Of a stretch of DNA of 64,000 bases, positions 21,915 through 50,790 are shown piece by piece. Position numbers and translations under genes: made by a program. Under the pieces are notes generated by a model that saw only the letters and a list, made by a program, of their open reading frames with translations, was not told the origin of the DNA and searched no databases. Each line of letters begins with the position of its first letter. Within the stretch, counting starts at the first letter, position 1. The stretch comes from a virus (lineage: Duplodnaviria; Caudoviricetes): IMG/VR virus record IMGVR_UViG_3300027805_000006; one strand, 5' to 3'.

Positions 21915-22230
21915 TTGAATACACCAGTAGGCGCCCATTAGAACCTTTTTGGAAGTGCAGTCGTCCGTCGTCCAGCATATCCTTCGTATAGACGATGTAA
22001 CGGTGTCCAGTTACCTGAGCAATCACCGAGAGCTCGAGCGAACCATCAGGACGAAGTTGGTAGCCGCTGATCTTCATCGGTTCATTCTCAATCTCCTTGT
22101 CCAGCAGCTTTACCGGCTGTCCTTTATTCTTGACGTGATCGGCAATAGTGCGCTTCAGCATTGATACTAGAATTGGTAAGTCTGCGCTTTCAGCCACGCT
22201 TACTTCAGTAAGGAGTTCAATAACCTTCAT
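21901..22230 (-). CDS. Putative internal head protein (family P)
   Basis: Leader MKVIELLTE. Confidence 0.65.
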   Translation of the reverse strand: MKVIELLTEVSVAESADLPILVSMLKRTIADHVKNKGQPVKLLDKEIENEPMKISGYQLRPDGSLELSVIAQVTGHRYIVYTKDMLDDGRLHFQKGSNGRLLVYSNEAN

Positions 22231-22850
22231 TTGCCAAATCTCCGTTCAAACTTCTTGGTGTGTTCTGACTTAGGAAGGTTTTTGCCCTTCTTCTTCAACT
22301 CAGCCTTGTACTTTTGGTCTGCTGTCCAATCATCGGGGTAGGCGGCTGGGTCAGTGTGTTCCATATCTTTAAAGCGCTTTATTTCACGTGTCATCTCAGC
22401 CTTCAGTTCTTTTTTCCTTGATGACCCTTTAAAGTTAAGATAACTCTTCTTTATTTTTTCTTCATTAGTTACCTGTTCTCTATCAATAATTGTCCAAACG
22501 CCATTTATCTTCTTAATGGTATAATTGTCATCAATGGGTCTTTCAAATTCGAAGAGCATAGTGCTCGTAGCACCACGGCCATACAACGCAAACTCCTTAT
22601 AAGGGCTAATGTGCAGTTGATCGTTGTTTATGGCACGTCTAAGTATGTCGACTGGATCAACGAGCATATACTCTGCCTGCACTACCCATCCTTCCTTAGT
22701 GCTGCGCATCGCCTGATATCCACGCTGTGTATTACCAGACAGGAAGGTACGTCCCTTCGCATTGACATAGATGGGCTTTTTAGCCTTTACTAGTTTGAGC
22801 AGCATAGTAGCTAATATGCTTTCATTCTCGAATAACTGAGCGAGCTTCAT
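22227..22850 (-). CDS. Putative two-domain internal head protein (family P domain plus basic C-terminal domain)
   Basis: Leader MKLAQLFENE; internal VTNE; C-terminal KSEHTKKFERRFG. Confidence 0.65.
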   Translation of the reverse strand: MKLAQLFENESILATMLLKLVKAKKPIYVNAKGRTFLSGNTQRGYQAMRSTKEGWVVQAEYMLVDPVDILRRAINNDQLHISPYKEFALYGRGATSTMLFEFERPIDDNYTIKKINGVWTIIDREQVTNEEKIKKSYLNFKGSSRKKELKAEMTREIKRFKDMEHTDPAAYPDDWTADQKYKAELKKKGKNLPKSEHTKKFERRFGK

Positions 22851-23149
22851 TCGTTTGGTGCAATCTGTGCGTCATAGTACTTGTGCTGGGAGTGGTCAAT
22901 CTTTCCAGTCTTCTGGTCAATCTTTCCACCATAGTGTGCTGCCTGGCGCTCAATTCTTTTGAAAAGTTCAGCCATTGCCTTCATAATAACTTCGTGGCTA
23001 TATGGCTTTTCTGGATTGGTTGCATCTAACATCTTAAAGTCAGGATTAATCTCTGCGTGTCTTTCAGCGTCTGGTGCAATAGGAACTTCAGGAGCAGAAT
23101 TTCCTGCAGCAATAATGTGTTTAGCTTTTATTAATTCACTTACCTTCAT
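22847..23149 (-). CDS. Hypothetical protein with a leader-like N-terminus
   Basis: MKVSELIKA; translationally coupled. Confidence 0.6.
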   Translation of the reverse strand: MKVSELIKAKHIIAAGNSAPEVPIAPDAERHAEINPDFKMLDATNPEKPYSHEVIMKAMAELFKRIERQAAHYGGKIDQKTGKIDHSQHKYYDAQIAPNE

Positions 23150-23151
23150 AG

Positions 23152-23607
23152 TTATTCTTCTTTGTTCTTAGGTACAAATTTTTCAGATAGTTCTTTTATC
23201 CACTCTAGCGCTACTGGAAGAGCGTCTTTTGGTGAAGCAAAGCGCTTGGAGTTTTTTGCTTTTAAAACTTGAGTTAGGCTTTGACCATCACTCATTGAAA
23301 CATACCAGCCACTCTCATTCTTAACACCATGCTTTTCTGGTGCAAAGGTGTAAATTACTGCTACCCACCCAACATTTGCTTTACCATTTTTTGCAGGTCT
23401 AATTAGTTTTGCACGCAAAATTCTTTGCTTTGGAATTCCAAACTTCCCACCCGATTTAATTGTACTCTGTTCAATTTTATCAGCGTATGGCTTAAGCGCC
23501 CTTGAAAAAAGGTTAAACATAAAATCTACTTCTTCATCGGTTTGTTGTTCAACCTCCAACTTTTCCTTAGATTTTTTTGCTGCTTCTACCAGGTTATGAA
23601 GTTTCAT
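23152..23607 (-). CDS. Putative internal head protein (paralog of 24160)
   Basis: Leader MKLHNLVEA; TDEEVDF motif. Confidence 0.65.
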   Translation of the reverse strand: MKLHNLVEAAKKSKEKLEVEQQTDEEVDFMFNLFSRALKPYADKIEQSTIKSGGKFGIPKQRILRAKLIRPAKNGKANVGWVAVIYTFAPEKHGVKNESGWYVSMSDGQSLTQVLKAKNSKRFASPKDALPVALEWIKELSEKFVPKNKEE

Positions 23608-23638
23608 TGCTAGTTCCTACCTTACTTTTTTGTGCTGT

Positions 23639-24145
23639 TCAACTGAACTTCACAATTCCCTGCGAAACTGTGGGTAGAATAATGGTAATTGAAACATTAG
23701 GTGTAGGATAAACTACGCTCAATGGAGTAACTTCGGAAAGAACAGTTTGCGTTACATCCCACGTATAGACCTTTATTTCGGGGTCATATCCAAGGTTATG
23801 CGTTACTGCCCAAGTGTTAGAATCTGATGTTTGGTAATGAGTGAAGTTAAGCCCCTGTAGAGCAAGTGCATTCTTCATTCTGTACCTGAAACTCGTAGTG
23901 CCAAGATTAGTTTCTGCTTGAACTGCAGATAGAAGAGAGTTAGCCATAGAATACCAAGCAGCATCAAATGCAGCATCATCTAGATATACAGTTCCTACGA
24001 GGGCAACTCTATCTTGTTCAAGTTGCTCTACCCAGTTTGAAAGTTGATTTACAACGCTCTTTAAAACAGCAACTTCAGTTCTTAACTCATTTCTTCTGTC
24101 ATGAAGAGAATTTACTATTGGTACACCTGATGGAAATGCTGACAT
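23639..24145 (-). CDS. Probable virion structural protein
   Basis: C-terminal TWAVTHNLGYDP beta domain, similar to the C-terminus of 44434..45324. Confidence 0.55.
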   Translation of the reverse strand: MSAFPSGVPIVNSLHDRRNELRTEVAVLKSVVNQLSNWVEQLEQDRVALVGTVYLDDAAFDAAWYSMANSLLSAVQAETNLGTTSFRYRMKNALALQGLNFTHYQTSDSNTWAVTHNLGYDPEIKVYTWDVTQTVLSEVTPLSVVYPTPNVSITIILPTVSQGIVKFS

Positions 24146-24159
24146 GCTTCGCCTTTGTA

Positions 24160-24657
24160 TTATTTCTTCTTACGTGATTTTAGATTCTTTTCAACTTCTC
24201 TTTCTTCTATCTCTTTTAATCCGTGTTCTACAGATATATGCGCCTTGGCAACATATTGTTTTATTGCCTTAAGCAACTCGGTGGGAGTTCCCTTCATTGT
24301 TTTTGGGCGACGCATTCCGATTGTTAGTTGTGCGTACCACTCTCCATCCCTGTAGTATATGAAATATTGAACTTTTCCTCTCGATGCGATGTCTATAACA
24401 TCAAAAGCATAGCCAGGAATTACAAGGTATTTTTCTCTAAACTTCTGTACTTGAGGAATTTTCAACAAACCAAATATTGTGCTGACACCATAAGAAGCAG
24501 GCACTACAAGAAAAGGATGTGAGTCTGGTGGAAGTGACTTCAGAAACATCTTATTAATAAAGTCAATTTCCTCCTGAGTTTCATGATCAACGGTCGGGGC
24601 TGCTTTATAGCCACGATTGCGATGATTAGCAGCCTCAACTAATTGAGAAAGAATCAT
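24160..24657 (-). CDS. Putative internal head protein (paralog of 23152)
   Basis: Leader MILSQLVEA; TQEEIDF motif. Confidence 0.65.
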   Translation of the reverse strand: MILSQLVEAANHRNRGYKAAPTVDHETQEEIDFINKMFLKSLPPDSHPFLVVPASYGVSTIFGLLKIPQVQKFREKYLVIPGYAFDVIDIASRGKVQYFIYYRDGEWYAQLTIGMRRPKTMKGTPTELLKAIKQYVAKAHISVEHGLKEIEEREVEKNLKSRKKK

Positions 24658-25046
24658 GCAAGATTTTCCATCTTATATTTAATTCTAGCAACAATGGCTT
24701 GAAGTTCCTCAAACTTATTCACCAAGAAGCCATCTTGCGGAATTATCTCGTGTTGCATTTCAAGGAAATGATACAACTGCGCAACAAATTCTTGTGGTGT
24801 ATTTTCACTAAAAATATTCGGTTCGCTTATTTCAATCCAAGTTTCAGTACCATATCCACCCATGTAGATTTCCATAAGATCATCTATTAGTTCATTCATG
24901 CCATCGTACAGCTCGCCGAGCGCCATGTGCTGTGAAAAGGATTTAACCTTCCAATGCCACATTCTAGCGGTGTTTTGAGCAGCTAGTAGGTGTGATACTA
25001 ATTCACCAATAGCTTCATCGTTTTTCTTATTGTTGTTATTATCCAT
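24654..25046 (-). CDS. Ferritin-like/Dps-like four-helix protein
   Basis: AxMWHWKVKSFSQHxALGELYDxxxELIDxLxExYMG resembles the Dps ferroxidase helices. Confidence 0.65.
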   Translation of the reverse strand: MDNNNNKKNDEAIGELVSHLLAAQNTARMWHWKVKSFSQHMALGELYDGMNELIDDLMEIYMGGYGTETWIEISEPNIFSENTPQEFVAQLYHFLEMQHEIIPQDGFLVNKFEELQAIVARIKYKMENLA

Positions 25047-25159
25047 TATTTCCTCTTAAAGAAGTTAATTACTGTCCATTGGTACAAAACATAGATGCGT
25101 TTTTGCTTATTTCAACAATGATTTATACCATGTTTTATTTACTTTTCCGGGTAGAATTG

Positions 25160-25417
25160 TTATCTATTTTTCATACTTTTCGTAAAAATATGCTCTAAAA
25201 GCATAAAATCAGAAAAGGTTAGTGCTGTATTTTCACCCATCATCTTCTTGAAGATGCCAGTGGTATAGGCCCAAAATCGTTTTGTCCCATGCTTGAATTT
25301 TTCTTCAGCAGATTTTTTAGCAGATTCCCAACGCTCCTCTGCCTTACTCATTGAGACACCATGTTTTTCAGCGTATTTTTTAACTAAAGTTGCTGGCATA
25401 TTATTCTCACAGTTCAA
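25160..25417 (-). CDS. Hypothetical basic phage protein
   Basis: MPATLVKKYAEKHG...WAYTTGIFKKMMG; start may be the second Met. Confidence 0.65.
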   Translation of the reverse strand: MNCENNMPATLVKKYAEKHGVSMSKAEERWESAKKSAEEKFKHGTKRFWAYTTGIFKKMMGENTALTFSDFMLLEHIFTKSMKNR

Positions 25418-25806
25418 ATTTTAGTAGGTGCAGTTTGTGGTTCCGCACTGCCAGGATATTCTTTGGCTTCGCCTGAAAGCTGTTCTAGAAAAACTGGTTT
25501 TAAAATCTTATCGCGCACAAGTTCCTTGAAGTTTGGCTTAACATCTGCGCGAACCTTTACCACAACCCTGTTGCTGTTGCCCATAAGAGGTCTAGACCCA
25601 AAAATTCCAGCAGTTGCGCTAATTGACCATTTATTTTCGCCAAAAGTACGATCAAAAATGCCCGCAGTAATTGGCCAAACTGGCCAGGCAACAATCGGCC
25701 TGACTACATAGTCCTTGTACTCAATCTGCTGTTCTGGTTCCCATTCGCCCTCCCAGTCATCATCTTGAGATAGCTTTGCAGTTTCAAAAAGTTCTGTCAG
25801 TTTCAT
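25414..25806 (-). CDS. Putative internal head protein
   Basis: Start revised to MKLTELFETA at 25806, 1 nt after the stop of the 25808 gene. Confidence 0.65.
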   Translation of the reverse strand: MKLTELFETAKLSQDDDWEGEWEPEQQIEYKDYVVRPIVAWPVWPITAGIFDRTFGENKWSISATAGIFGSRPLMGNSNRVVVKVRADVKPNFKELVRDKILKPVFLEQLSGEAKEYPGSAEPQTAPTKI

Positions 25807-25807
25807 T

Positions 25808-26353
25808 TTAACCAAACTTTTTCTTGAGGGCGGCTCTAAGAGCATCTGCCTTCGCTGCACTAATAAGTTTTGAAGTATTTTGCTGCTGTGAAATTGCTCC
25901 ATAGGCAGACTTAAGCTTTTCATCCTTTGTTTTTTTATGAACACGTGAATTATACAGCCAAGCTGCCATTGCCAAAACACCAATATCTCCGTCGCGATAC
26001 CTTGCCCAACGTCCTTCTGCATCAGATGCGCCGCTGTCATTCCATTTTTCTAAAATACGCGCTTCATTTGCTGGAGATTTTGATTTAAACATTACTCTGC
26101 TAATAATTTTTTTCCCATCAGAAGTTTCTATACGAACAAATACACCACGAAGTGCATTAAAGACTCTGATTAAAATATTTCCAAGACCCATTTTGATTCG
26201 TTCAGATTTTACTTCTTTTCCAACCTTCAGTACCTTTTCTGCAGTATCATCATCAACGACGACTAATTCATTTGGTTGGGTGTCAAGAAATGATGCAGCT
26301 TTATTCATGGCAAGCTGATTAGCATTTTCATTTAATAGCTCATGGATTTTCAT
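25808..26353 (-). CDS. Putative internal head protein
   Basis: Leader MKIHELLNE; internal PANE/ILE sites. Confidence 0.65.
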   Translation of the reverse strand: MKIHELLNENANQLAMNKAASFLDTQPNELVVVDDDTAEKVLKVGKEVKSERIKMGLGNILIRVFNALRGVFVRIETSDGKKIISRVMFKSKSPANEARILEKWNDSGASDAEGRWARYRDGDIGVLAMAAWLYNSRVHKKTKDEKLKSAYGAISQQQNTSKLISAAKADALRAALKKKFG

Positions 26354-27156
26354 TTTTGCACAGATATTTGCTTAATCAGAGTTGGTAAATGTGTCTCAAG
26401 CCATTGCACATATTGCTGACTTGAGTACTTGTTTGCATTTTTTGTGATTGTGGCAATAAATTGAGTTCCAACATGATCTGCAATAAGTTGCCCAAATGAT
26501 GATTTTGCACCCTGCCCTGAGACCGTCTTATCAACGCCAAATTCATGTGTTCGTTGGCCCGTCTTAATTCCACTATCTGCTAACCACTTCTTTACGACTG
26601 CAACTAGGTCCTTTTCAACACTGGGGTCATAGTAGTAGAACTTCAATGAGTCATTGTGTGACATAAAATAATCCAAATGACGGTGTGTCTTGAAGCTAAT
26701 CGGCGTCTGCTTATCATTTGAAAAATCGCGTATCTTTGAAATGAGCGTGTTGAATGATTTTAGAAACTTTGCGATATTTTCTTTTGTACGCTCAACCGTG
26801 ATATAGTAGTTCAATGTGCGGTCTTGGCCTGTTTTTCTTGGTATGTTAGCATTTATATCAACTTGTGCCCACGGTCCGCCGCCGCCAGTATTGAAGAATT
26901 TTCCGCTAAAGTAAGTCTTCCACGCGTTTACAGCGGTGTCATCAAAGCCAACCTGCTTTGCCTTTCCTATTTTGGCAATATCAACATCATTTACAACGAT
27001 GTCATATATAATTGACTTTATTTCTTTTTGAAGAGTAGAATTACTGGTATCAACTACTAGATCTGAAATAAGTTTTTCTAATTTTGCTTTTACGGGAGCA
27101 AAGTTAAACTGCTGAGCTTCAGCCAAAACCTGTAGATAAATGTCAGCCAGTTTCAT
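26350..27156 (-). CDS. Putative internal head protein
   Basis: Leader MKLADIYLQVLAEA; 268 aa. Confidence 0.65.
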   Translation of the reverse strand: MKLADIYLQVLAEAQQFNFAPVKAKLEKLISDLVVDTSNSTLQKEIKSIIYDIVVNDVDIAKIGKAKQVGFDDTAVNAWKTYFSGKFFNTGGGGPWAQVDINANIPRKTGQDRTLNYYITVERTKENIAKFLKSFNTLISKIRDFSNDKQTPISFKTHRHLDYFMSHNDSLKFYYYDPSVEKDLVAVVKKWLADSGIKTGQRTHEFGVDKTVSGQGAKSSFGQLIADHVGTQFIATITKNANKYSSQQYVQWLETHLPTLIKQISVQK

Positions 27157-30401: not shown

Positions 30402-30420
30402 GCCAGATTAGCTTGGAAAA

Positions 30421-31020
30421 TTAGGCGACGGCACCGCCTAATGCAGTTCCGTAACCAGCGCCACTCTCGATATGACGTGCATGATCATATCTGATGTTCA
30501 TCGTGATTGTTGCTGCTTCAGAGGCTGAGTAGTCACGGTCTCCGAAGTCGGCTGATGTTAGCATGCAGCCCTCAAGAATCCATGTCTGTACAATGCCTTC
30601 ATCACCATCAAGTTGCTCAATCTTTGAGCCGAACTTGTAGTTAGAACCAGTTGCTGCGGTATTCAGCCAACGTCCGTCAAGGTCAACACCAATTAGGCGC
30701 TGCTGTGTCTCAAGTTGCCCCTTGACTACAGTTGCTGCTAGCCCAGTAATATCGTCTTCAACTGTTACGCTGATTGGTTCCCAAGTGTGCTTACCTGCAA
30801 CGTACGCTACTGAGTTGTAGCGGTGCAATGCAACTTCTTCAAATGATAAGTTTGGAAGAGTGATGTTGGTTACCTGCATTGACAGGTTCTTTGCGCTGTT
30901 TGCGATGCCTGGAACAAGTTGTCCCATGTTCAGGAAAGTGATACGGAATTTGTTCTTTAAGCGAGGATGGAGAATACCTGCGCCCACGCCAGGAATTCCA
31001 AAGTTTGATAGCGTTGCCAT
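30421..31020 (-). CDS. gp19: Tail tube protein (gp19-like)
   Basis: HPRLKNKFRI...YVAGKHTWEPISVTVEDD...IRYDHA. Confidence 0.85.
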   Translation of the reverse strand: MATLSNFGIPGVGAGILHPRLKNKFRITFLNMGQLVPGIANSAKNLSMQVTNITLPNLSFEEVALHRYNSVAYVAGKHTWEPISVTVEDDITGLAATVVKGQLETQQRLIGVDLDGRWLNTAATGSNYKFGSKIEQLDGDEGIVQTWILEGCMLTSADFGDRDYSASEAATITMNIRYDHARHIESGAGYGTALGGAVA

Positions 31021-31105
31021 ATTATACTCCTTTTAGAAGGGTGTTCAATCTTTATCCTAGATATTTATGTCTAGACAAGTTTTTATGTAATAAAATAAAT
31101 ACTGG

Positions 31106-31132: not shown

Positions 31133-32719
31133 ATGACAAAAAATAGAACTTTAGATGATCACATCAAACTTGGGCACGTTCGGTACATTTCAAAAGATGC
31201 TGAACAGGAACTTATAGAAAGAACGCCTGGTTGTAGTGGTGACAATGCAGAAAGATTATTTTGGCTTTTGAATGGATTGTCTTCATATCCTAAATGTCAA
31301 TCGTGTTCTAACACTTTAACATCTAAACAGTGGCAGCCTTTCTTAAAGAAACTTCACCGTACTGATGAAAACAAAAAGAGTGGTTATCTTCCATTTTGCG
31401 GAAAAAGTTGCGCTTATCTTAATGGGTCAAAAAAGGAAACCTATAAAAAAACCTGTATTGAGCGCTACGGGGTTGAACACCCAATGCTGACAGACGATGT
31501 TGTTGCCAAGATAAAAGCAACTAACATTGACCGCTATGGAGAACCAGCACCTATGCGCTGGTCTGGTCAAAAATTCAAAGATGCTATTAGGCAAAAATAC
31601 AATGTAGAAAATGTGCGGGCAATACCACGGGTGCATGAAGCAACAATTTACGCGAAAGCAAAAACAACTACTGAACTGCTACCTCTAAAAATTATTGAAT
31701 TAGAAAAATTGTTTAACGTAGAATGTCAAACAGATTTATCACAATTTGTTCTTATTCATCGCATGTATGATATTTCATTTTCTTGGAAACACAAGTGTGG
31801 AAGGGTTTATGAAAGCAATATATCTGAGCGTGGAATTCGCCAGTGCCCAAGTTGCTCATCAGGAACATCTAAAGGTGAGCAGGCAGTCATGGACTTTATT
31901 AAGTCTCTTGGCATAGAGGTTGAGCATCGAAACAAGTCAGTGATTGCACCAAAAGAAATTGACATCTGGATACCTGAGCATAAACTCGGTATTGAGTTTG
32001 ACGGTACCTACTGGCACAGCGCTAAGTTCCAAAATGAAAAGCAGAGTTTAGAAAAACTGACCATGATGGAGCAGATTGGCTGTCGTCTAATTACGCTGCA
32101 GGAGCACCTGTGGGTCAATAAGCCTGAGCACGTCAAGAACCGGTTGGCGTCAATTCTAGGTAGAAATAAACGAGTGCAGGGTAGAAAAACAGAGGTACGC
32201 GAGATTGACAAGGAAGCGGCGCGGGAGTTCCTAACTGAGAACCACCTTCAGGGCTATGCACGTTCAACTGTGCAACTTGGTCTGTTTTACAAGGATGAAC
32301 TCATCTCAGTTGCTACCTTCTCAAAGCCAAGGTGGGCAAAAAAGCATGACTGGGAATTAATTCGCATGGCTTCAAAGGCTGGATTAATGGTGCAGGGTGG
32401 ACCATCAAAACTTATATCTGAGTTTAGGAAAAATTATTCTGGAAGTTTAATAAGTTACGCTGATCGGTGCTGGAGCACAGGCAACGTTTATAATCAAGTT
32501 GGTTTTAAGTTTAGCCACTTTACGACTCCCTCCTATTGGTGGATCCACCATATGTTGGGAACATATGCCAGGTACCAGACACAGAAGAAAAAACTTCCAA
32601 GGCTCCTCACAGATCTTAATAAGACGTTTTCTCCAGAACTTTCTGAGGAAGACAATATGCGAATTGCTGGGTTTTTGCCGCTGTATGACCGAGGAAATAG
32701 CGTTTGGATTTTAGCCTAA
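31133..32719 (+). mobile_element. Free-standing Hef-like (DUF559/Vsr-type PD-(D/E)xK) homing endonuclease
   Basis: Zn ribbons (CQSC, FCGKSC, CPSC), ERYGVEHP repeats, EIDIWIPEHKLGIEFDGTYWHS nuclease core, C-terminal YADRCWSTG domain; antisense to the structural operon. Confidence 0.8.
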
Positions 32720-33028
32720 TTCGTTGCTGACGACAAGCGTCTTGACGCCATCTCGCTCTTCTACCTTTAGACGGAGCGTATCTAGTTGCTCATCCGATAG
32801 GTAACTATTCATGCCCCATCTTTTTCCATGCTTCGTGGAAAATAGCCAGTCATTATACTTGTATTCTACTGACGACAACTCACCGTCTTTTATTTGCGTG
32901 TATTTTCCAATAAGTTCAGCAACGTGCACTGGCTTACCAGCATCGAGCCACTTTTTGATTGTTTCGACGGCAAGCCTACCTCGCATGGATACCTTATCGC
33001 TGAAGTCCAGTATTTCCGTCAGAAGCAT
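32711..33028 (-). CDS. Putative internal head protein (family P)
   Basis: Leader MLLTEILD; IKKWLDAGKPVHV...DGVKTLVVS. Confidence 0.65.
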   Translation of the reverse strand: MLLTEILDFSDKVSMRGRLAVETIKKWLDAGKPVHVAELIGKYTQIKDGELSSVEYKYNDWLFSTKHGKRWGMNSYLSDEQLDTLRLKVEERDGVKTLVVSNELG

Positions 33029-33625
33029 TTAAACCTCTTTTTGATTTACCCAAATAGTTTCAAGAGGTTTCTTTACTATGCTTTTTCCTTCAGAAATAAT
33101 TCCAATTTTCATCTGCTTAATCATTTGGGGAGTTATGTCTCTTGAGCGAAGACCACCTCTTAAGAAGAAATGAACAGGTACAGGTGCATCGCCAAGCATG
33201 CGGCGAATAGTACGCATTCTTCCTCTTCCCTCGTGTCCCCTTATTTTTGGCAGTGAAAACAGATCATCTTCATCTTCTGAAAATTGTATTGATAAGAAAG
33301 GAATTCCAACCGCATATCCCTCTTTTATCAGACGTTCAAGTTCTATAGATGTAGGTTCCTGTGCGCCATCATCAGAAAGAGCCAGGCTTAAAAACACTGA
33401 AGGCTTAACCATTGCCACAAAGCCCTCATACCAAACATTTTGATTACTTGGTACTGAACCTAGCCCATCAGAAGCGCTAAAGGTTATATCACCTATTCTG
33501 TAATTTTTTTCCGCGTGGGCTGGTGACCAGGCAGGAGCATCAACAATTTTCTTGGCATAGACCTTTCGGTCTTCTTTATTTTCTCTTACGGATGTAATTC
33601 CAAGAAACTGCTTAAACGTCTTCAT
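33029..33625 (-). CDS. Putative internal head protein with a ParB/Srx-like fold
   Basis: Leader MKTFKQFLG...SVRE; IRGHEGRGR motif. Confidence 0.6.
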   Translation of the reverse strand: MKTFKQFLGITSVRENKEDRKVYAKKIVDAPAWSPAHAEKNYRIGDITFSASDGLGSVPSNQNVWYEGFVAMVKPSVFLSLALSDDGAQEPTSIELERLIKEGYAVGIPFLSIQFSEDEDDLFSLPKIRGHEGRGRMRTIRRMLGDAPVPVHFFLRGGLRSRDITPQMIKQMKIGIISEGKSIVKKPLETIWVNQKEV

Positions 33626-33628
33626 AAC

Positions 33629-33991
33629 TTATTTTTCCTTATGACCAGTAAAAATAAGTTTATTGTGCCCTTTACCATTAACATTAAACAGTATTTTAAA
33701 CTTGTCCACGTCTTCTTCTTTAATTTCCATCTCTCTTTGGCCCGTAAAGTCACCAAAATCCTCGTTCCAGTGATCGTAATAGATAACAACAGGTGTTTGT
33801 ATTTTTCCAGAAGAGTCCGTATATGGATGCCCAACTTCCGCACCACCGACCACTCCGACATAATAGCCATCATCATAGTTGTCAATAAAGATATTCAAAC
33901 CATTGTGCGTATCACTAACACGGTTTATCATTTTTATAAAAAATGCCGCGTCTATCATCTCAGTAATAAACTGTTTAAAGGTTTTTTGCAT
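33629..33991 (-). CDS. Internal head protein with a T4 CTS-like leader (family P)
   Basis: MQKTFKQFITE. Confidence 0.7.
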   Translation of the reverse strand: MQKTFKQFITEMIDAAFFIKMINRVSDTHNGLNIFIDNYDDGYYVGVVGGAEVGHPYTDSSGKIQTPVVIYYDHWNEDFGDFTGQREMEIKEEDVDKFKILFNVNGKGHNKLIFTGHKEK

Positions 33992-33992
33992 T

Positions 33993-34328
33993 TTAATCTT
34001 TCATCAGCAGCGCATTTCTCTTCTTGCCGGTGGGAGATAGTACAGTGCCAAAATAAAGTTTATCAATATCATCTTTGTGAATGGATAAAACCGCTGGAAC
34101 AAATGTGTGTTCATACTCGCTCCACGCTTTGAACTCAATATCTATACCACCGCCAGAATTAACACTAACACCATCATATTCTGGTGATTCAATTTCACCT
34201 TCTTCATAGTTACCATCATTGTAGTAGCCTTGAAGATAAAGAGGGGAAATAGCCTGCTTTTTCCTAATTAACTTTACAAGAAACTCTGAATCCATAAATT
34301 CAAGAAGGAAGTGCTTAAATGTTTTCAT
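33993..34328 (-). CDS. Internal head protein with a T4 CTS-like leader (family P)
   Basis: MKTFKHFLLE. Confidence 0.7.
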   Translation of the reverse strand: MKTFKHFLLEFMDSEFLVKLIRKKQAISPLYLQGYYNDGNYEEGEIESPEYDGVSVNSGGGIDIEFKAWSEYEHTFVPAVLSIHKDDIDKLYFGTVLSPTGKKRNALLMKD

Positions 34329-34668
34329 CTTTAGTAAGTATTAAGGTTTTGACGCCATCAATTGTTTTTACTTTGAGGTTTGGAATTAGGCTTCTGTGAA
34401 TATGGATAATTGGATTATTTTTATCAAAATCATCATCAAAATTCTTCCTATATTCAACAAACAGACCTTCCAAACTTCCCACCCAGACCTTGTTAATAAA
34501 ACCTTTTGCTTGCATAGAAGAATCGTTTGGCAAGTCATATTGAACAAGTGGAAAGTCTTCTGGTGCTATTTTAATGGCAAATTTGCCGCCGGCATCAACT
34601 GACTTCTTTATCATCTTGACAATGAATTCTTTATCGAACTCTAATAGAAATTGCTTGAATGTCATCAT
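34315..34668 (-). CDS. Internal head protein with a T4 CTS-like leader (family P)
   Basis: MMTFKQFLLE. Confidence 0.7.
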   Translation of the reverse strand: MMTFKQFLLEFDKEFIVKMIKKSVDAGGKFAIKIAPEDFPLVQYDLPNDSSMQAKGFINKVWVGSLEGLFVEYRKNFDDDFDKNNPIIHIHRSLIPNLKVKTIDGVKTLILTKDENI

Positions 34669-34731
34669 TTTTGAAAGTAAAGTACAATATATTTACTGAG
34701 AATAGAGACTATTATAACAATTATTCAAGAC

Positions 34732-34758
34732 AAAACGAAAGGGCCCGAAGGCCCTTTC
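34732..34758 (-). terminator. Terminator of the sheath gene with a C(UUCG)G tetraloop
   Basis: GAAAGGGCC-TTCG-GGCCCTTTC-GTTTT on the - strand. Confidence 0.85.
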
Positions 34759-34778: not shown

Positions 34779-36626
34779 TTAGATTTCTGCGCCAGTGTTT
34801 ACAACACGAATTGGGATGTAGATAAATTCTGCTGCCTTTGTTGGTTTGATTGCAACATCTAGATATAGTTCGTTGCGATCAATACGGTCTGGCGTGTTAT
34901 TGCTCTCATCACAGTATGAAGCATAATCCATAAGACCACGCTTGATAAGGATGTCATTCATGATACCATCGGCTGCTGCCTTCAGGTTGTCACGAGTGAT
35001 TTGGTCATTTGGCTCGAACACGAAAGGTAGAGCACCCTTACGAAGGGCTCTGCGTAGGAACATGACCAGCCGTACAACGTTGATGCGGTCCAGAGCAGAT
35101 GCTGCCGGTGCTGACGTCTTCTGACCCCATACAATTAGACCACGACCTGGGAAGAATACGATTGGATTGATGTTCTTGTCGTACTCATACAGGTTGTCGC
35201 GTTGACCTTCATTCAGATTTGACTCGATGAAAGTGGTTGCTGTGCCTGGGGTGCCAGTAAAGTAACCTACCTGTGAAACACCTGTTACGATACCACGCTG
35301 GATACCGGCTGGAGCAAACCATACATATGAAGCGTTATCGCTATATGCAAGTGTCTTAAGTGCTGTTCCTGATGGTGCGCCTAGAACGTTACGTCCATCT
35401 AGGTTAGACATCAGGCACCATGGGTAGTAGTAAGCAGCATTATTGCTGGAGAAGCGGGCTGATGAAAGCGCCCATTGAGCGGCTTGCTCAGGTGTCTTGT
35501 CGCCTGGAACATCAGCAATTACCATTGCCTCTTCTTTGACTGAAGTGCTAAGAGCAAGAAGTTCATCAACTACTTCTGGATAGCCTGGGCAAAGGATTAG
35601 ATTATACTCATACAGTGGTGAGCGAACTTCGGTATTGCTGTTGATTGCAGCCTGAAGAGCAGTTGTAATTGCAACCCGCTTAGCAGCATCATTTGCGCCT
35701 AGAGGAGCAGAGATTGTTACTGGGTTAACATCAATAGTAAATTCATCACCTGCTACGAATGGTGTAGTTCCAGCGATTGCAGTAAAGTTGATTCTATTGT
35801 TGTCAAATGGAGAACCTACAACACCAGAACCTGCAACACCAGAAACTGTACCAGTTACGGAATAGGCTGTTGGCGTTGTGAATGTTACAGTAAAGGTTTC
35901 ATCAATTGCTAGGGTATCAGGGACTAGAGCAACTAGTGTTCCATTTCCCGTGTTTGCAACACCTGGTACTGCAACATATACTAGCGAGAACATGAACTTA
36001 TCACCAATTGCAAAAGGTGTAGAACCATCGTTAACAGTCAAATCAACTACTGTTGAGGTGAATGGAATTCCAACAGCGCCTGCACCAACATAACCAGACA
36101 GTGAGCCTGTTACGGTGAAGGTAGATGGTGATGTGAATGTTACAGAAATTGTCTGTGGCTCAACCACAGAACTTGCACCAGAGATTGAACTAATTGTTCC
36201 ATTTCCAATTCCATTGAATACGATGGAACTAGACTGTGCCTCTGGAGTTCCTAGGCTCATGAATGAACGTGGCTCATCAGACAAGTCAATATTTGCGCGT
36301 ACGACAAATGCACGATTTCCAATGTCAAGGAACTGATTGAGTGCCAATAGACCATACTCATTACGAGCATCACCGTGGAATTCATTATTTGAGGAATCCT
36401 TCCGGAAATGTGGAATACCATACAGTTCAAGTGCTTGTGCTCTTGAGGTAACTGTGCGTACTACTCCAGATTCCAGAGTGCCGGCTGCAGGGGTGACACC
36501 ATTTGGTTGGGTCTTTCCTGCTCTTGTTGCCACGAAGAACAGTGGCAGCGTTGGAGCAGAAACAGGGATAAAAAAGCTCTCATTAACTACTGAGACTGAG
36601 ACGCCTGGTGATACTAGTGTTGGCAT
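34779..36626 (-). CDS. gp18: Tail sheath protein (gp18-like)
   Basis: MPTLVSPGVSV N-terminus; WFAPAGIQRG, SALDRINVVRL, FVFEPND, IKPTKAAEFIYI. Confidence 0.95.
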   Translation of the reverse strand: MPTLVSPGVSVSVVNESFFIPVSAPTLPLFFVATRAGKTQPNGVTPAAGTLESGVVRTVTSRAQALELYGIPHFRKDSSNNEFHGDARNEYGLLALNQFLDIGNRAFVVRANIDLSDEPRSFMSLGTPEAQSSSIVFNGIGNGTISSISGASSVVEPQTISVTFTSPSTFTVTGSLSGYVGAGAVGIPFTSTVVDLTVNDGSTPFAIGDKFMFSLVYVAVPGVANTGNGTLVALVPDTLAIDETFTVTFTTPTAYSVTGTVSGVAGSGVVGSPFDNNRINFTAIAGTTPFVAGDEFTIDVNPVTISAPLGANDAAKRVAITTALQAAINSNTEVRSPLYEYNLILCPGYPEVVDELLALSTSVKEEAMVIADVPGDKTPEQAAQWALSSARFSSNNAAYYYPWCLMSNLDGRNVLGAPSGTALKTLAYSDNASYVWFAPAGIQRGIVTGVSQVGYFTGTPGTATTFIESNLNEGQRDNLYEYDKNINPIVFFPGRGLIVWGQKTSAPAASALDRINVVRLVMFLRRALRKGALPFVFEPNDQITRDNLKAAADGIMNDILIKRGLMDYASYCDESNNTPDRIDRNELYLDVAIKPTKAAEFIYIPIRVVNTGAEI

Positions 36627-36839
36627 ATTTTTCTCCTATCAACGCGTTGAATGCGTTTTGTTTATTTTCTAACAGAGGTATTTACGGGTTTAACCGGTTT
36701 TTCCTTTGGTTTTTAAGTTACTTTGCAACATTCCACTAGGCTAAGACTTTTAATTTTAGCAACAATTTCATCTACTTATGATTTGTGTAAAGTTGCTCTT
36801 AGACCAAACCAATATGCACCCTTATGAAACCATTTTGCT

Positions 36840-37689: not shown

Positions 37690-39537
37690 TTACAACTTGC
37701 TTGTCAATGATTTCTTTTCTTCAAGGTTCAAAATCGCCAACTGTGATGGCTTGTGTGCAGAGCGTTCATTTCGCCTGTCAGTTTCAACGAAAATCCAGCG
37801 GTTCTTGACCGTGCTGAACTTATAAAGACGGGATGCAATCCTCATTTCTGGAGGATAGTTTAGTCTAAAGAACGAACCATCTGTTTGGCCTGCAACATCA
37901 GGTAGTTTAAAGCCCTCAGTGTAAGGCTGTCCATCTGGTGGCAGACCGTCTTCAACATAAAGACCTCTGCCATCATAACTACCAGGTCGATTAAACCTGT
38001 CCATACCAGATGCATTTTCACGAACGTTTGTTCCCTTCTCGGGAACAGCCTGTTCTGCTTCAGCCTGATTATTCTCTGTAACAGTTAGAGGTGCAGTTTG
38101 AATTTGCTCAATGCCATCAAAGAATGTTGCATCGTCAATTGAATATTTTTGCGTATTGATGGTGCCAAGAATGTCTCGGTGTTCCTGTCCTGGAATTAAC
38201 TGCTGTGCAGTGAATCGATAGAGGATAGGCTTCCACCCAGTGCTATAGCCCTCTGCTGACCAGCCCACATCAGTTATCTCCAGAAATTTGCGTACTGGCT
38301 TTAGGTTGTGGTCATACTGAATTTCTGCTGGAAGGTCAAGAACGTCACCTACGACAATTGGGCGCCCAAGTGCTCTTACCATTTCAGCAAATGAAAGAGT
38401 AAAGGTGTAAACATCTGCAATCTGGAAGCCAAACTTAGACATATCATTCATACCATCAAATGGCTGATACGATGCCTTAAGTTGAATACTGGATGTTGCG
38501 TAGTCTCTGTCTCTATTCTCCATCCAAAGTGTGTCTTGTATGTTATCAAGACTTGTAGCAGTATAGTCAAACAGTTCAAGTTTATCTACAGACCATGCTT
38601 CCCCAATACCACCAAGAAAAACAGTTGGCACAATTCTCCAGTACCTTGACGCTGATGACTGTTTGATGCTGATTGTTGCCGCTGTTGGAATATCAGGAAG
38701 GTTAACTACATCTACTCTAAACCAGTCAAGTTCTATAGGCACGGTAAAAAAATCACCTAGTGCAAATGGAATTGTTCCTGCTGTAATAGTGAATGAGCCT
38801 TCTTCACAGTTGAAGCGTTGGTTAACCGTCGCAACACCTACTACAGAAATTCCAGTGCTTTCCATAAACGTCACTGAGAATGTTGTGGCTGAGAGGGCTG
38901 AAAGCATAAACAAACCAGGTCTAGATGAAAGACCAGATCTAAATGCTTCAAATACTCCATTTCCAGTGCCGGTATATTCAACTTTGGTATAGTCGACCTT
39001 ATAGCCACCATTTGAGCGGTCAATTCTAACCTGTCTTGCCCTTACTGGCCCTGGCTGTGTAATCTTAAATGATGTTATGTGTTGTGCTGCAGAAACCCCT
39101 GGCGCATTTTCATCTTGTCCATAACTTGTTTGCCGCACACCAAAATCATAGCCTATCCATGCTGGTGTTAATAGTACGTCTGTGCTAGTTTCATCGCTTA
39201 CCCATGACGGAGCAAGAGAGTCAAATGCATTTGATGCATCTCCACTGGATGAAATTGCGCTTCCATTTCCAGTCAAGTCAATTAATTTTCCCTGTTCGTG
39301 AATTCCCAGCAGTTTGAAAACATTGATTGGCACACCAGAAATATTGAGTGCCTCTGCTGCTAGTTGCTCCTGGAAGTTGTTCTCTGGAACAGCACAGTCG
39401 CCTTGAGTGATAGTGAAGTCACCCTTACACAGATCGGGTGGGATATAAGGGCCTGGGCTAGGCAACGGAGAATTTGCAGGGTTATTGATTGACCCTGCAC
39501 CGTCTGGGCACTCAGTAATTGGAAGTTTGGATGTCAT
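37690..39537 (-). CDS. gp14: Neck protein (gp14-like) with inserted discoidin-like and sheath-like domains
   Basis: EALNISG...; MENRDRDY...SKFGF...RPIVVGDVL core. Confidence 0.75.
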   Translation of the reverse strand: MTSKLPITECPDGAGSINNPANSPLPSPGPYIPPDLCKGDFTITQGDCAVPENNFQEQLAAEALNISGVPINVFKLLGIHEQGKLIDLTGNGSAISSSGDASNAFDSLAPSWVSDETSTDVLLTPAWIGYDFGVRQTSYGQDENAPGVSAAQHITSFKITQPGPVRARQVRIDRSNGGYKVDYTKVEYTGTGNGVFEAFRSGLSSRPGLFMLSALSATTFSVTFMESTGISVVGVATVNQRFNCEEGSFTITAGTIPFALGDFFTVPIELDWFRVDVVNLPDIPTAATISIKQSSASRYWRIVPTVFLGGIGEAWSVDKLELFDYTATSLDNIQDTLWMENRDRDYATSSIQLKASYQPFDGMNDMSKFGFQIADVYTFTLSFAEMVRALGRPIVVGDVLDLPAEIQYDHNLKPVRKFLEITDVGWSAEGYSTGWKPILYRFTAQQLIPGQEHRDILGTINTQKYSIDDATFFDGIEQIQTAPLTVTENNQAEAEQAVPEKGTNVRENASGMDRFNRPGSYDGRGLYVEDGLPPDGQPYTEGFKLPDVAGQTDGSFFRLNYPPEMRIASRLYKFSTVKNRWIFVETDRRNERSAHKPSQLAILNLEEKKSLTSKL

Positions 39538-40310
39538 AGGTTCACTTGAGGTGGCTCACAGGAAATATGATATCTATTTAGGGCAACCAGTGTAGTTTCC
39601 TTGCGACACCGACAACACGAGGCTCTTGGCACAAATTGTCTTCCTTTATTAACTACTGACAGATGTGCACGTTGTGCTTCTGTCATAGGAATTCCCTTTG
39701 GGCGGCCTCCCTTGTTGGTACCAAGTTTCATGCGAGTTACTGCCGCCTTTTGACCGCGCTGTTTGAGAACTTCTTGAGGTGCTGAGGAATAGTAGCGCTC
39801 TTGACCAGCTTTGAGATTTTGCTTTTGGCCGCCGGTGCGCTTCTTGCCGGTATTGGCCTTGGCACGCTTGGCCACAATCTCAGGAGTAGCGATCTTCTTG
39901 ATGTGTTCAGCCATGGCGACAGCGTCAGCCTTGCGCTTTGCCCACATCAAATCTGCTGCCTCCTTGCACTTCCGCCGTGCTTCTTCACGCAAGGTCTTGA
40001 TTTCTTCCTGATTTGCATTTCCACCCTTGATGATGTTCATGCACATAGGATTTGATAGCATTTCATCAGTTACAATTTCACCTTCCCGTCTAATGAGCGT
40101 TGCACGATCTTCACAATGCTCCAGAATTTGAACAATGTGGGCATTTTTGCCATGCTTTTTAATACTCTTCCAAAGGCGTGATCCACTTCCTTGATACCCG
40201 TCGTTTAGATCATCGGTGCTGTGTAGTCCTATGTACCACTTGCCGGTGAGCGTGCAGGTAGTCTTGTAGATGATGTGATACTTGCGGTGTTTCGGTCTAG
40301 TGACTTCCAT
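39534..40310 (-). mobile_element. Free-standing GIY-YIG (Seg-like) homing endonuclease
   Basis: HIIYKTTCTLTGKWYIGLHSTDDLNDGYQGSG; basic NUMOD-like tail; own TATAAATA promoter. Confidence 0.85.
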
Positions 40311-47921: not shown

Positions 47922-48815
47922 TTACTTGATACCTGCGAGGCGCTTCAGGTGTGCAAGTCCTTCATTGACTGGCACAGCCTTTTGCTGGGTAGTTGCTACT
48001 GACTCTTCGCCAGTTACAACCTTCGTTTGTGTTTCAACAGCTTTTTCTTCAGTCAGTGCCTGTGCAACTTCTGCTGCCTGCTCACCTTCCTTTAGAATTC
48101 TGCCAATGAAAAATTTGTATGATTCTTCAAGACGAGCAGTGTCAACGTTCTTTAGGACCATTGCCATTTGCTCACGCTTCTTGCCAGTCAGAGAAGATAG
48201 AACCTGCTCCATCTTGGCTTCGCGAATCATCTTGTTGATTTCTTCTTCGCTATCAGCAAGACGCTTTTCAGCATCTGATAGCTTTTGTTCTGCTACGTTC
48301 AGTTTAGACTGAATTGCCTCTTCATCAACATAGCTTTGTGAGTACTCGTTGACGAAGGCTTCAAAAATGCGACGACCGAATTCATTCTGCTTGACGACTT
48401 CAAGATCTTCTTTGAGTTCGTCCATTTCAGAAGTCAGGCGCATTTCGAAGAAAGCGTCGATTTTGTCGACTAGAGAGTCTAGCTCTGTTGCAACTTCAGT
48501 TGCGAGCTTATGCTTCTCTTCAACTAGCTTTTCAGCGTATTCTGCCTCTAGATCACGGAAGCGCTCGATGTCTCCCTTGAGCTCAGAAATTTCCTTTGTT
48601 AGGGCTTCTGCAACGAAACCATCTACTTTAGAGATGAGTTCGTCTCTTTCAGAAATCCACTGTTCAGCTAGTTCATTACGAACTTCCATTGAAACGTCTT
48701 CACGGACTTTCGTCTTGAAGGCTTCAACAGATGCTGTCCATTGCTCAGAAATCTCTGTTTTGGTTTCTTCGCTGAGAAGCTCGGACTGTAGAAGCTTGTT
48801 CAGAATCTCATCCAT
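47922..48815 (-). CDS. gp22: Prohead core scaffold protein (gp22-like)
   Basis: Acidic coiled-coil, FGRRIFEAF motif, position upstream of the capsid gene. Confidence 0.85.
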   Translation of the reverse strand: MDEILNKLLQSELLSEETKTEISEQWTASVEAFKTKVREDVSMEVRNELAEQWISERDELISKVDGFVAEALTKEISELKGDIERFRDLEAEYAEKLVEEKHKLATEVATELDSLVDKIDAFFEMRLTSEMDELKEDLEVVKQNEFGRRIFEAFVNEYSQSYVDEEAIQSKLNVAEQKLSDAEKRLADSEEEINKMIREAKMEQVLSSLTGKKREQMAMVLKNVDTARLEESYKFFIGRILKEGEQAAEVAQALTEEKAVETQTKVVTGEESVATTQQKAVPVNEGLAHLKRLAGIK

Positions 48816-50178: not shown

Positions 50179-50790
50179 TTATTTTGAGCCCTTGCGAATT
50201 GCTTCAAGAAGACATAAAATTTCCTTTTTCAAATAAGCTTGTGCATTCTTATCATGTACTACTGTTTCAGCAAGAGACATAATCTTCTTGCTTCCAAGTG
50301 CTTCCATAACTGCAGATGGGTAGGCATCAGGAGCAGATGGCTGTGACACGATGTCTACGGTAACGAATGAGAAGTCAGAAACTTCTCCACTCTCATTTAC
50401 GTTTCCAGTTCCGCGTGATGATACTCCTAGTCTTACTCCACCCTCAATTAGACCGCGTGCAATATTTCCGCAGGGGGTGTTAAGAAGTTTCATCTTGCCA
50501 ACAACGTTATTTCCATCCATTGTCATTTCAGAAATGACGTGTGATACTCTTCCAAGGTCAATTGACAGGGTGTCAGGGTGATTTAGTTCGCCGCAAATGC
50601 TAAAGCCTTCGCTGATTTTCTTCTGTGCAGACTCAACTACCTTTGACATTTCTGCGGAGCGGTACTTTCTTCCATTTCCATTTACACACTCTGCCTGCAT
50701 CAGAATACCCTTTAGGTATAGGTCTTGGCCCTTGCGCATTTCGCAGAGGCTAGCAGTAGATGGTGAAAGCTGTTCTGTTAAGATTTTCAT
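50179..50790 (-). CDS. gp21: Prohead protease (gp21-like)
   Basis: NGNGRKY, GELNHP, RVSHVI, GVSSRGTG, TVDIVSQPSAPDA. Confidence 0.92.
   Translation of the reverse strand: MKILTEQLSPSTASLCEMRKGQDLYLKGILMQAECVNGNGRKYRSAEMSKVVESAQKKISEGFSICGELNHPDTLSIDLGRVSHVISEMTMDGNNVVGKMKLLNTPCGNIARGLIEGGVRLGVSSRGTGNVNESGEVSDFSFVTVDIVSQPSAPDAYPSAVMEALGSKKIMSLAETVVHDKNAQAYLKKEILCLLEAIRKGSK

Follow-up and report, generated by a model that had tools for sequence, protein, structure and literature searches.

A variable gene cassette with putative T4-type capsid-targeting leaders between the tail sheath and tube genes of an uncultured jumbo phage

Why would a run of small genes that begin alike lie between the tail sheath and tail tube genes of a jumbo phage, and where in the virion would their products go? 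We addressed this question in a 64,000-nucleotide stretch of DNA (the window) from an uncultured ~330-kb jumbo phage, IMG/VR record IMGVR_UViG_3300027805_000006. Sequence comparison places this phage as a distant relative of T4 whose nearest relative among the listed cultured phages is the Ralstonia jumbo phage RsoM2USA (55% identity between the two sheath proteins), and megablast of 7 kb of the window against 50,697 phage records returned no match. Environmental contigs identical or related to the window come from freshwater, wastewater and sediment libraries; metatranscriptome contigs at 100% identity attest to its presence and are no proof of transcription or strand.

The locus consists of five tightly packed minus-strand genes, A to E, lying 3' of the sheath gene (34779..36626, minus strand, 615 aa; Pfam Phage_sheath_1C, E 7.6e-12; phrog_10581, E 3.6e-156) and upstream of the tube gene (30421..31020, minus strand, 199 aa; phrog_4542, E 1.7e-40). 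The original prediction had set the cassette between sheath and tube; its flanks are as described, with a homing endonuclease gene on the plus strand (31133..32719, 528 aa; phrog_3339, E 2.9e-100) also lying between cassette and tube. This gene converges on the cassette, with a 9-nt overlap at the end of E, and matches Pfam DUF7487 (E 1.5e-8; 35.2 bits, exceeding the 27-bit cut-off), with REase_MTES_1575 and Mom matches slightly under their cut-offs. Between the sheath gene and gene A, a terminator scan and direct reading identified the predicted minus-strand signals: a strong intrinsic terminator (34737..34758; GAAAGGGCC-TTCG-GGCCCTTTC, then GTTTTGT; 9 pairs, 6 of them GC) followed by GTAAATA (34690..34696), 21 nt upstream of gene A. 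This element resembles the T4 late promoter TATAAATA. Of the TAAATA cores in the window, 29 are on the minus strand and 6 on the plus strand; most structural genes (those for protease, scaffold, sheath, tube and fibre) have one at 20-60 nt upstream, the tube gene having an ATAAATA element of its own.

All five genes read on the minus strand, and the first four have the consecutive TFK-type starts that had been claimed for them. Gene A (34315..34668, 117 aa) begins MMTFKQFLLE; gene B (33993..34328, 111 aa), which sets in 14 nt before A is complete, begins MKTFKHFLLE; gene C (33629..33991, 120 aa) begins MQKTFKQFITE, with one extra residue ahead of the motif; and gene D (33029..33625, 198 aa) begins MKTFKQFLG..VRE (N terminus MKTFKQFLGITSVRE). 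The fifth, gene E (32711..33028, 105 aa), whose start abuts the D stop, begins MLLTEILD, so that the description of a cassette of leader genes holds for A to D and fails for E.

In T4, a capsid targeting sequence (CTS) has been described for the internal proteins IPI, IPII and IPIII (Mullaney and Black 1996; see the reviews PMC9026906 and PMC3012670). The T4 leaders quoted for comparison were correct when checked on NC_000866, where ipII and ipIII begin MKTYQEFIAE and ipI begins MKTFKEF. A six-frame scan of the 64 kb for M..T[FY][KQR]x[FY] matched solely the four ORF starts of A to D. T4 genetics assigns targeting to residues 4 and 7 and processing to residues 8 and 10, and T4 gp21 cuts after L/I-x-E (PMC9026906). 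With a consensus of M-x-T-F-K-Q-F-(L/I)-x-E, the leaders studied here are most conserved at precisely those positions, 4, 7, 8 and 10. F4 and F7 are present in A, B and D and shifted by one residue in C; together with E10 they are nearly invariant in the alignment of the A-C family, in which no other 10-column stretch is as conserved as the leader (rank 1 of 92), and they are nearly invariant in the D family as well. Across a set of at least 58 distinct leader ORFs in relatives, with otherwise unrelated bodies, position 8 is L or I in 58/58, position 10 is Glu in 48 and position 9 takes twelve different residues.

The processing site reads LLE in A and B and ITE in C, so a leader ending in Glu10 (shifted by one in C) is found in three of the four proteins. 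D of the window instead has L-G-I at positions 8-10 (Gly9-Ile10), its first glutamates being E15 and E18 in the next sites, VRE15 and NKE18. An (L/I)-x-E site is present in almost every D orthologue; given the missing Glu10, processing of the window protein, if any, would proceed via V13-R14-E15, or be absent. In T4, Asp10 stops cutting and leaves targeting intact.

The leader behaves as a module: in the window, in RsoM2USA and in IMG/VR relatives it precedes bodies of 65-674 aa that are unrelated to one another. A second leader type, MKIxELFEE or MKLVELLES, takes its place on the D body in three orthologues. In ten proteins in which B and D are fused, the internal TFKQF has been lost and an [LIV]-x-E motif is kept 2-4 residues before a conserved IYAK at the domain junction, as expected for a polyprotein released by a protease.

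Comparing cassette content across relatives confirmed that this is a hypervariable locus, with a sheath-tube gap that ranges from empty to variably filled. In about ten relatives the two tail genes are directly adjacent, separated by 23-350 nt. Elsewhere the gap holds D alone or with one small non-leader ORF (L014, L016, L040 and L041), D with further ORFs (L017 and L034), a B-like domain fused to D (L009 and L037), or four TFKQF/TFRQF-leader ORFs, one ORF with the second leader type and an endonuclease (L038/L039). A homing endonuclease homologue is its only occupant in L015, L024 and L026, immediately precedes the tube gene in L029, and has a Hef-like counterpart at the same place in PA5oct. 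A relative with 83-85% identity (L162) lacks gene A and has an unrelated 518-aa ORF instead, and leader ORFs also turn up between gp15 and the sheath gene in some relatives. Judged from these sequences, the sheath-tube gap is a hot spot at which leader genes and a homing endonuclease are gained, lost, fused and swapped, and D is the ancestral occupant of the site beside the tube gene.

Searches of Pfam and PHROGs assigned A-E to no family and gave no link to internal proteins already described. By sequence comparison, A, B and C have diverged within a single small family that is restricted to this lineage: A and B have only their first 23 residues in common, C and B share 27% identity over 115 aa, and an A-C profile searched against 1.84 billion representatives drew 16 matches, every one from the phage's own lineage (a word-indexed search gave 3). 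A further ORF at 20909 matched this profile weakly, over its first 35 residues only (E 0.013). The AF2 model of B (pLDDT 86) has a leader helix at residues 4-11 and a helix at 14-27, followed by a beta domain, for which searches of the wide PDB set, AFDB clusters and viral structures found nothing closer than weak resemblances to small beta-barrels or Sm-like folds (best Z 4.8), too weak for a fold assignment. E shows a 17-residue C-terminal similarity to A; because it has no significant match to the A-C profile, we do not call it a paralogue. Its N terminus is, on sequence, of a different, shorter L-x-E type. It is met again in L162, as MLLEEI, and in L023/L025/L036, where a 237-aa protein encoded upstream of D begins MLLTEI(T/I)K.

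D is unrelated to A-C. Its family (49 homologues, a Pfam domain in none) retains an invariant GHEGRGR motif at residues 130-136, and one homologue is ORF385 of RsoM2USA. The AF2 model (pLDDT 91.6) is consistent, though weakly, with a conserved ParB/sulfiredoxin-fold (ParB/Srx) protein: all 8 PDB matches with Z>=2 belong to the ParB/Srx superfamily, led by Osa, the pSa fertility-inhibition factor (4ovb; Z 6.4, 14% identity), with sulfiredoxin (Z 4.8), SerK, SbnI, PadC and ParB-N among the others. Foldseek matches were weak (E>=0.065), with AFDB ParB/Srx-domain clusters at E 0.009-0.1; a D profile found no match among PDB sequences, and a Pfam search of 34 family members at E<=5 found none either, ParBc included. 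Going by its model, D would share with Osa and ParB/Srx proteins a core in which a strand leads into a helix with a Gly/Arg-rich motif at its start, GHEGRGR in D; it differs from them in carrying a capsid-type leader. The ParB counterpart of this motif is GERRxRA.

We consider these observations best explained, with a probability of roughly three in four, by a late operon of cargo bearing T4-type CTSs, which would be docked in the prohead, cut by an S77 protease, retained in the head and possibly released with the DNA. The cassette genes would be transcribed late as an operon whose products carry the targeting sequence. The amphipathic leader helix, through Phe4 and Phe7, would dock each new protein onto the scaffolding core of the prohead; the Peptidase_S77 prohead protease, encoded 16 kb away, would then cut after Glu10 of (L/I)-x-E; and the mature proteins would remain in the head with the DNA and may exit with it at infection. 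Candidates for both partners are encoded in the window, as are the portal and capsid genes. The presumed processing enzyme is a T4 gp21-type prohead protease (50179..50790, minus strand; Pfam Peptidase_S77, E 8.9e-28, above cut-off; phrog_207, E 1.5e-57) that itself begins MKILTE. The presumed docking partner is a scaffold-like core protein (47922..48815, minus strand, 297 aa; phrog_10922; 1668 homologue clusters at 90% identity) encoded between the protease and capsid genes, a position that we take to be that of T4 gp22. Complex prediction for this protein with B scored 0.00, a value that counts neither for nor against binding. Because the leader is almost the same as the ten-residue T4 tag, proteins A-D are very probably head-packaged cargo. 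They may possibly be injected, and an anti-restriction activity of the cassette proteins would be pure conjecture. At the level of sequence, then, the predicted T4-type CTS is supported by its functional positions, the S77 protease, the modularity of the leader and selection at the peptide level, as well as by the late-promoter-like element, the close spacing of the genes and the variability of the locus.

Virion data from RsoM2USA bear on this reading. TFKQF occurs at four sites in that genome, 4/4 of them ORF N termini, heading proteins of 165-674 aa (ORF89, ORF132, ORF255 and ORF385). For ORF89 and ORF132 there are published virion data: on the strength of LC-MS/MS and a comparison of masses, 10 proteins, these two included, were said to 'most likely correspond' to the major virion bands, in material in which heads and tails were not separated (PMC8504454). 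Our recomputed masses confirm both identities, and by our own arithmetic the chance of finding at least two of four leader ORFs among 10 of 486 ORFs is about 0.002. The pattern TFK(Q/E)F occurs at one internal site in XacN1 and at none in PA5oct, so giant T4 relatives do not all have this exact leader.

The position of the cassette could suggest a different destination, with the leader acting as a tag for the tail, baseplate, neck or another non-capsid compartment and the proteins being tail-associated accessories. The genes do lie in the tail module, between sheath and tube, rather than in the head module; leader ORFs of relatives lie between gp15 and sheath; and the RsoM2USA mass spectrometry pooled heads and tails. 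We nevertheless regard this as unlikely, since the leader equals the T4 capsid tag at exactly the four functional positions and ends in a head-protease motif, and since the D homologue of RsoM2USA sits in the head module, adjoining the capsid gene. We know of no tail-targeting peptide of this kind.

Improbable to a similar degree is that the leader-bearing proteins enter the head as structural or core parts, destroyed or expelled at maturation, rather than as injected effectors. T4 gp67 and gp68 are core proteins that are degraded or expelled in this way. The protease logic of T4 also serves core proteins that are later destroyed (PMC9026906), and A-C have neither a recognisable activity nor a confident fold match. 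Accessory cargo fits better, however, because the genes are dispensable, as the empty gap in about ten relatives and the loss of A in L162 indicate; D has a predicted enzyme-like fold and an invariant motif, and RsoM2USA leader proteins were found in mature virions.

That the shared N terminus is a nucleotide element, either a recombination mini-homology or a translation-initiation enhancer, is very improbable: T-even IP loci are thought to shuffle via conserved leader DNA (Repoila et al. 1994, cited by PMC12373910) and a metagenome contig, a weak point in favour, fuses the A leader to the B start and skips A, but at each conserved residue of the 58 leaders the third codon position varies freely (ACA/ACG/ACC, TTT/TTC, AAA/AAG, CAA/CAG and GAA/GAG), on which ground we reject a DNA-level repeat in favour of selection on the peptide, the four window copies differ at many synonymous sites, and conservation tracks amino-acid properties.

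Head-packaged cargo, the preferred reading, aligns the cassette with the T4 internal proteins in several respects: a ten-residue N-terminal leader, MKT-aromatic-x-x-F-(I/L)-x-E, with aromatics as residues 4 and 7 and, for cutting by a gp21-type protease, an (I/L)-x-E site; one leader common to otherwise unrelated small proteins; and non-essential, variable genes with late-type expression signals. Unlike the T4 proteins, those of the cassette are putative cargo, are encoded between sheath and tube in a ~330-kb jumbo phage and belong to families with no relationship to IPI-III; in D orthologues the first leader class can give way to a second without a change of cargo, and relatives have two-domain fusions with an internal cleavage motif. 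The hyperplastic IP loci of T-even phages likewise vary in gene content between conserved flanks, with leader-coding 5' ends that stay conserved (Repoila et al. 1994, cited by PMC12373910), whereas the cassette is flanked by essential tail genes, shares its gap with a homing-endonuclease site and has leader DNA too little conserved to be an obvious recombination substrate. Giant phages of the phiKZ-like and SPN3US-like kinds use a gp21 homologue to cut many of the proteins inside their heads after a Glu (PMC9026906, PMC5694885), with a cleavage motif of S/A-x-E and no short transferable targeting peptide defined; in the cassette the T4-type leader itself is conserved.

A broader proposal, which we hold only tentatively and think doubtful, is that M-x-TFKQF(L/I)xE and the interchangeable MK(L/I/V)xEL(L/F)xE tags form an address code for a large, fast-evolving injected proteome. 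D might then be an injected ParB/sulfiredoxin-fold enzyme, or a decoy, directed against host DNA or against defence nucleases of the ParB-N/DUF262 type, GmrSD for example, and the B-D fusions might be polyproteins split by the prohead protease inside the capsid. That nuclease family is the target of all three T4 internal proteins.

Leader-tagged head cargo is a known principle, very probably at work here in a distant and environmentally common phage lineage, and a large one judging by the 1668 clusters of scaffold homologues. With the cassette, the range of the T4 capsid-targeting peptide would come to include jumbo phages that are distant from T4 and closest to RsoM2USA, and this suggests that the triad of peptide, scaffold and protease is ancient. 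Natural leader swapping and polyprotein cargo could be useful for engineered protein delivery by phages, and the cassette proteins, above all the candidate ParB/Srx-fold protein D, are candidates for new counter-defence proteins. Were the leader to function as it does in T4, sequence alone would reveal which proteins a whole uncultured jumbo-phage lineage packages and probably injects.

Five minus-strand genes, A-E, lie between the tail sheath gene (34779-36626, minus strand) and the tail tube gene (30421-31020, minus strand). The sheath gene is followed by a strong hairpin terminator (34758-34737; 9-bp stem, TTCG loop, GTTTTGT tail) and, forty nucleotides beyond it, by a GTAAATA element (34696-34690), the arrangement that had been proposed from the sequence. 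The cassette then comprises A (34315-34668; 117 aa, MMTFKQFLLE), B (33993-34328; 111 aa, MKTFKHFLLE), C (33629-33991; 120 aa, MQKTFKQFITE), D (33029-33625; 198 aa, MKTFKQFLGITSVRE) and E (32711-33028; 105 aa, MLLTEILD). The end of A and the start of B share 14 nt, C, D and E each start 0-3 nt from the stop codon of the gene before, and a convergent plus-strand homing-endonuclease gene (31133-32719; phrog_3339, E = 2.9e-100), beyond which lies the tube gene, shares 9 nt with the end of E. A six-frame scan of the window placed the motif M..T[FY][KQR]x[FY] at the starts of A-D and nowhere else; the four consecutive TFKQF-type starts of the original prediction are real, and only E, the fifth gene, lacks the leader. 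TAAATA is strand-biased in the window (29 minus versus 6 plus) and sits 20-60 nt upstream of most structural genes, A included; we read it as a predicted late promoter, modelled on that of T4 (TATAAATA).

The leader resembles the capsid targeting sequence (CTS) of T4 internal proteins, which in the T4 record start MKTYQEFIAE (ipII, ipIII) and MKTFKEF (ipI), as the original prediction stated. In IPIII the first ten residues suffice for packaging, with residues 4 and 7 of the T4 leader governing targeting and residues 8 and 10 processing; gp21 cleaves after L/I-x-E, and Asp at position 10 blocks cutting while targeting is kept (PMC9026906). Among 58 distinct leader ORFs taken from the window, 35 related loci and RsoM2USA, a cultured Ralstonia jumbo phage, position 8 is L or I without exception, and twelve different residues occur at position 9. 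F4, K5 and F7 are nearly invariant in the D family (34 proteins aligned); in the A/B/C family (15 aligned) F7 is invariant, F4 and E10 are nearly so, and the leader is the most conserved ten-column stretch (rank 1 of 92). Conservation as a recent DNA repeat or nucleotide-level element was ruled out, because no conserved residue is tied to a single synonymous codon across the 58 leaders (Thr: ACA 30, ACG 17, ACC 10; Phe: TTT 23, TTC 35; Lys: AAA 23, AAG 32; Gln: CAA 31, CAG 25; Glu: GAA 29, GAG 19). D of the window and its 88% relative P0003 have lost Glu10 (L-G-I instead); by analogy with T4 Asp10, such a protein may still be targeted and, if so, would be cut elsewhere (VRE15) or left uncut. 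T4 itself encodes a further such start: gp61.1 (L167:667-831; NC_000866 18966-19130), a hypothetical protein of 54 aa encoded beside the primase gene, has the N-terminus MKTFKEFIKE, which is CTS-like in canonical form (I-K-E at positions 8-10); we found no report naming it a head protein.

Published virion proteomics of RsoM2USA ties the leader to particles. The TFKQF pattern occurs at four sites in this phage and at none with a reversed-pattern control, and all four are ORF N-termini: ORF89 (MKTFKQFLSE), ORF132 (MKTFKQFLNTLME), ORF255 (MNQTFKQFLTE) and ORF385 (MQTFKQFLSE), a D homologue adjoining the capsid gene. ORF89 (28.57 kDa) and ORF132 (76.64 kDa) are within the ten virion proteins identified from the most abundant gel bands, heads and tails together, by LC-MS/MS and mass comparison (PMC8504454). 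Masses recomputed from the record are 28.56 and 76.62 kDa, and by our own arithmetic the chance of at least two of four leader proteins falling among ten of 486 ORFs is about 0.002. Next to ORF255, ORF254 (L005:333-1076) starts MTTFKEYLLE and ORF256 (L005:1795-2217) starts MKFSDYILES, the latter containing VVDGFHHLAYE, reminiscent of the ParB/Srx DGxHR motif.

Behind the leader, the proteins diverge. A and B are alike in their first 23 residues only, B and C share 27% identity across a 115-residue stretch, and D is unrelated to A-C; in relatives the leader is found on proteins ranging from 65 to 522 residues, many of which are encoded between gp15 and the sheath gene. The leader itself can be exchanged: in D orthologues P0023, P0028 and P0029, MKLVELLES, MKIRDLFEE or MKIKELFEE replaces it on an otherwise conserved body. 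This second class of leader, MK(L/I/V)x(E/D)(L/I)(L/F)xE, is found on 38 ORFs in the window and relatives combined. In the window it starts a run of some dozen small genes at 20144-27156 (minus strand; for example MKVIELLTE, MRVSEILTE, MKMFELFEE and MKLLQELLSISEE) and the ORF at 61129-61596 (minus strand). In ten D homologues a B/C-type domain is fused to D, with one leader at the N-terminus. All ten junctions lack TFKQF and keep [LIV]-x-E, 2-4 residues ahead of a conserved IYAK, as expected if targeting were given once and the protease then split the domains. E shows no significant relationship to the A-C family; its MLLTEI N-terminus recurs on other D-adjacent proteins in relatives and resembles that of the prohead protease (MKILTE).

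Comparison of 34 IMG/VR loci with sheaths 51-84% identical bore out the predicted hypervariable locus, its contents ranging from empty through D only, fused and multi-leader to endonuclease. In about ten loci the sheath-tube gap measures 23-350 nt. L014, L016, L040 and L041 have a D orthologue beside the tube gene, accompanied at most by one small ORF that lacks a leader; L017 and L034 have it together with further ORFs; L009 and L037 hold a B-like domain fused to D; L038/L039 combine an endonuclease with four TFKQF/TFRQF-leader ORFs and a class-2 leader ORF. An endonuclease is the only occupant in L015, L024 and L026, phage PA5oct has a Hef-like homing endonuclease at this position, and L035 and L036 have gaps of several kilobases with other genes, which L023 and L025 resemble, their contigs ending short of the tube gene. 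An ENA contig (L162, 83-85% identical) keeps B, C, D, E, endonuclease and tube gene in window order, with an unrelated 518-aa ORF (L162:5759-7315; no leader, no Pfam family) in place of A and the promoter region (window 34333-34720). Given these gap contents, D is the ancestral occupant and the best conserved one. A-C joined it recently and are restricted to this lineage; a profile search of 1.84 billion representative proteins returned only 16 matches to their family. In a single contig from a freshwater metagenome the opening 20 nt of A, which hold leader codons, run straight into the position immediately before B, and the rest of A is missing (34332/34649); such a junction would fit leader-to-leader recombination, weakly so at a 25-nt flank and an 85% likeness threshold. 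Homing-endonuclease-like genes stand at three sites in the structural module, cassette/tube (31133-32719, plus strand), portal/protease (50865-51791, minus strand) and upstream of the neck genes (39534-40310, minus strand), the first type recurring in the sheath-tube gap of relatives.

We modelled the cargo protein D (pLDDT 91.6; low confidence at residues 1-20, where DSSP assigns a short helix to residues 4-12). Foldseek matches in the PDB were weak, led by Osa, sulfiredoxin, PadC and ParB; with an exhaustive structural aligner all eight chains at Z ≥ 2 belonged to the ParB/sulfiredoxin superfamily, the best being Osa (4ovb; Z 6.4, 119 residues aligned, rmsd 4.5). Among AFDB clusters a cellular homologue ranked first, aligned from residue 24 and thus without the leader, followed by ParB/Srx-domain proteins. 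An invariant GHEGRGR (130-136) lies at a strand-helix junction of the model, the position that the GERRxRA box has in ParB. We call D a predicted ParB/Srx-fold protein, a name given by fold alone because no sequence profile supports membership. In the B model (pLDDT 86) the leader helix and one further helix precede a beta domain of seven strands; fold searches found no convincing structural relative.

Sheath identity is 55% with RsoM2USA and 44-51% with XacN1, PA5oct and Rak2-like giants; no near-identical phage record was found for the window, and its D protein is also recorded on a 329,993-bp contig. The lineage is common, since homologues of its scaffold-like protein alone make up 1668 clusters in a metagenome protein collection. 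Contigs from a freshwater metatranscriptomic library, 100% identical to the window, span the tube (30402-31043) and sheath (34797-36638) genes, with shorter fragments matching A, B, C/D and the endonuclease; they show the same strain in nature and are compatible with transcription of the locus.

The exact MKTFKQF DNA pattern occurs in at least 120 IMG/VR contigs, versus a handful expected by chance (our estimate), and among the matches listed (80 loci, 85 matches) nearly all are at ORF starts, usually followed by x-E or x-x-E; on this sequence evidence the leader is widespread among uncultured phages. Within the collection of papers searched, neither MKTFKQF nor MITFKQF appears. About 20 contigs of L042-L121 share a 51-aa MKTFKQF protein continuing QEEWSNKYKKSIDCSNPKGFSQR, and L090 has four leader ORFs in succession. 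Upstream of the sheath gene, L010, L011, L012 and L027 carry four to seven consecutive 200-310-aa genes starting MITFKQFLxE, many with a (K/R)(D/N)C motif about 20 residues in, like RsoM2USA ORF255; these genes have no homologue in the window.

The T4-type head module comprises portal (51697-53361), Peptidase_S77 prohead protease (50179-50790; Pfam E = 8.9e-28), scaffold-like protein (47922-48815) and major capsid protein (46612-47892). In both the window phage and RsoM2USA (L001:7210-8445) the capsid protein carries L-M-E or I-A-E, then T-A, at about residues 39-41, a plausible candidate gp21-type maturation site that would remove a propeptide of about 40 residues. For the cassette products the T4 mechanism is the best-supported account, its steps after synthesis drawn by analogy: the proteins would be made late, dock on the scaffolding core through the leader, be cleaved by the S77 protease behind the Glu of the leader and stay in the head. 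The CTS, gp21 cleavage and hyperplastic internal-protein loci are known from T-even phages; new here are the clade itself, a location between sheath and tube genes, the families of cargo, natural leader swapping, fusion proteins that keep the cleavage motif and the link to RsoM2USA virion proteomics. Purely by analogy, the cassette proteins may also be injected and act against host defences. GmrSD type IV restriction enzymes have a ParB-like N-domain and are inhibited by each of the three T4 internal proteins (PMC12373910), so the predicted fold of D is suggestive, and no more than that.
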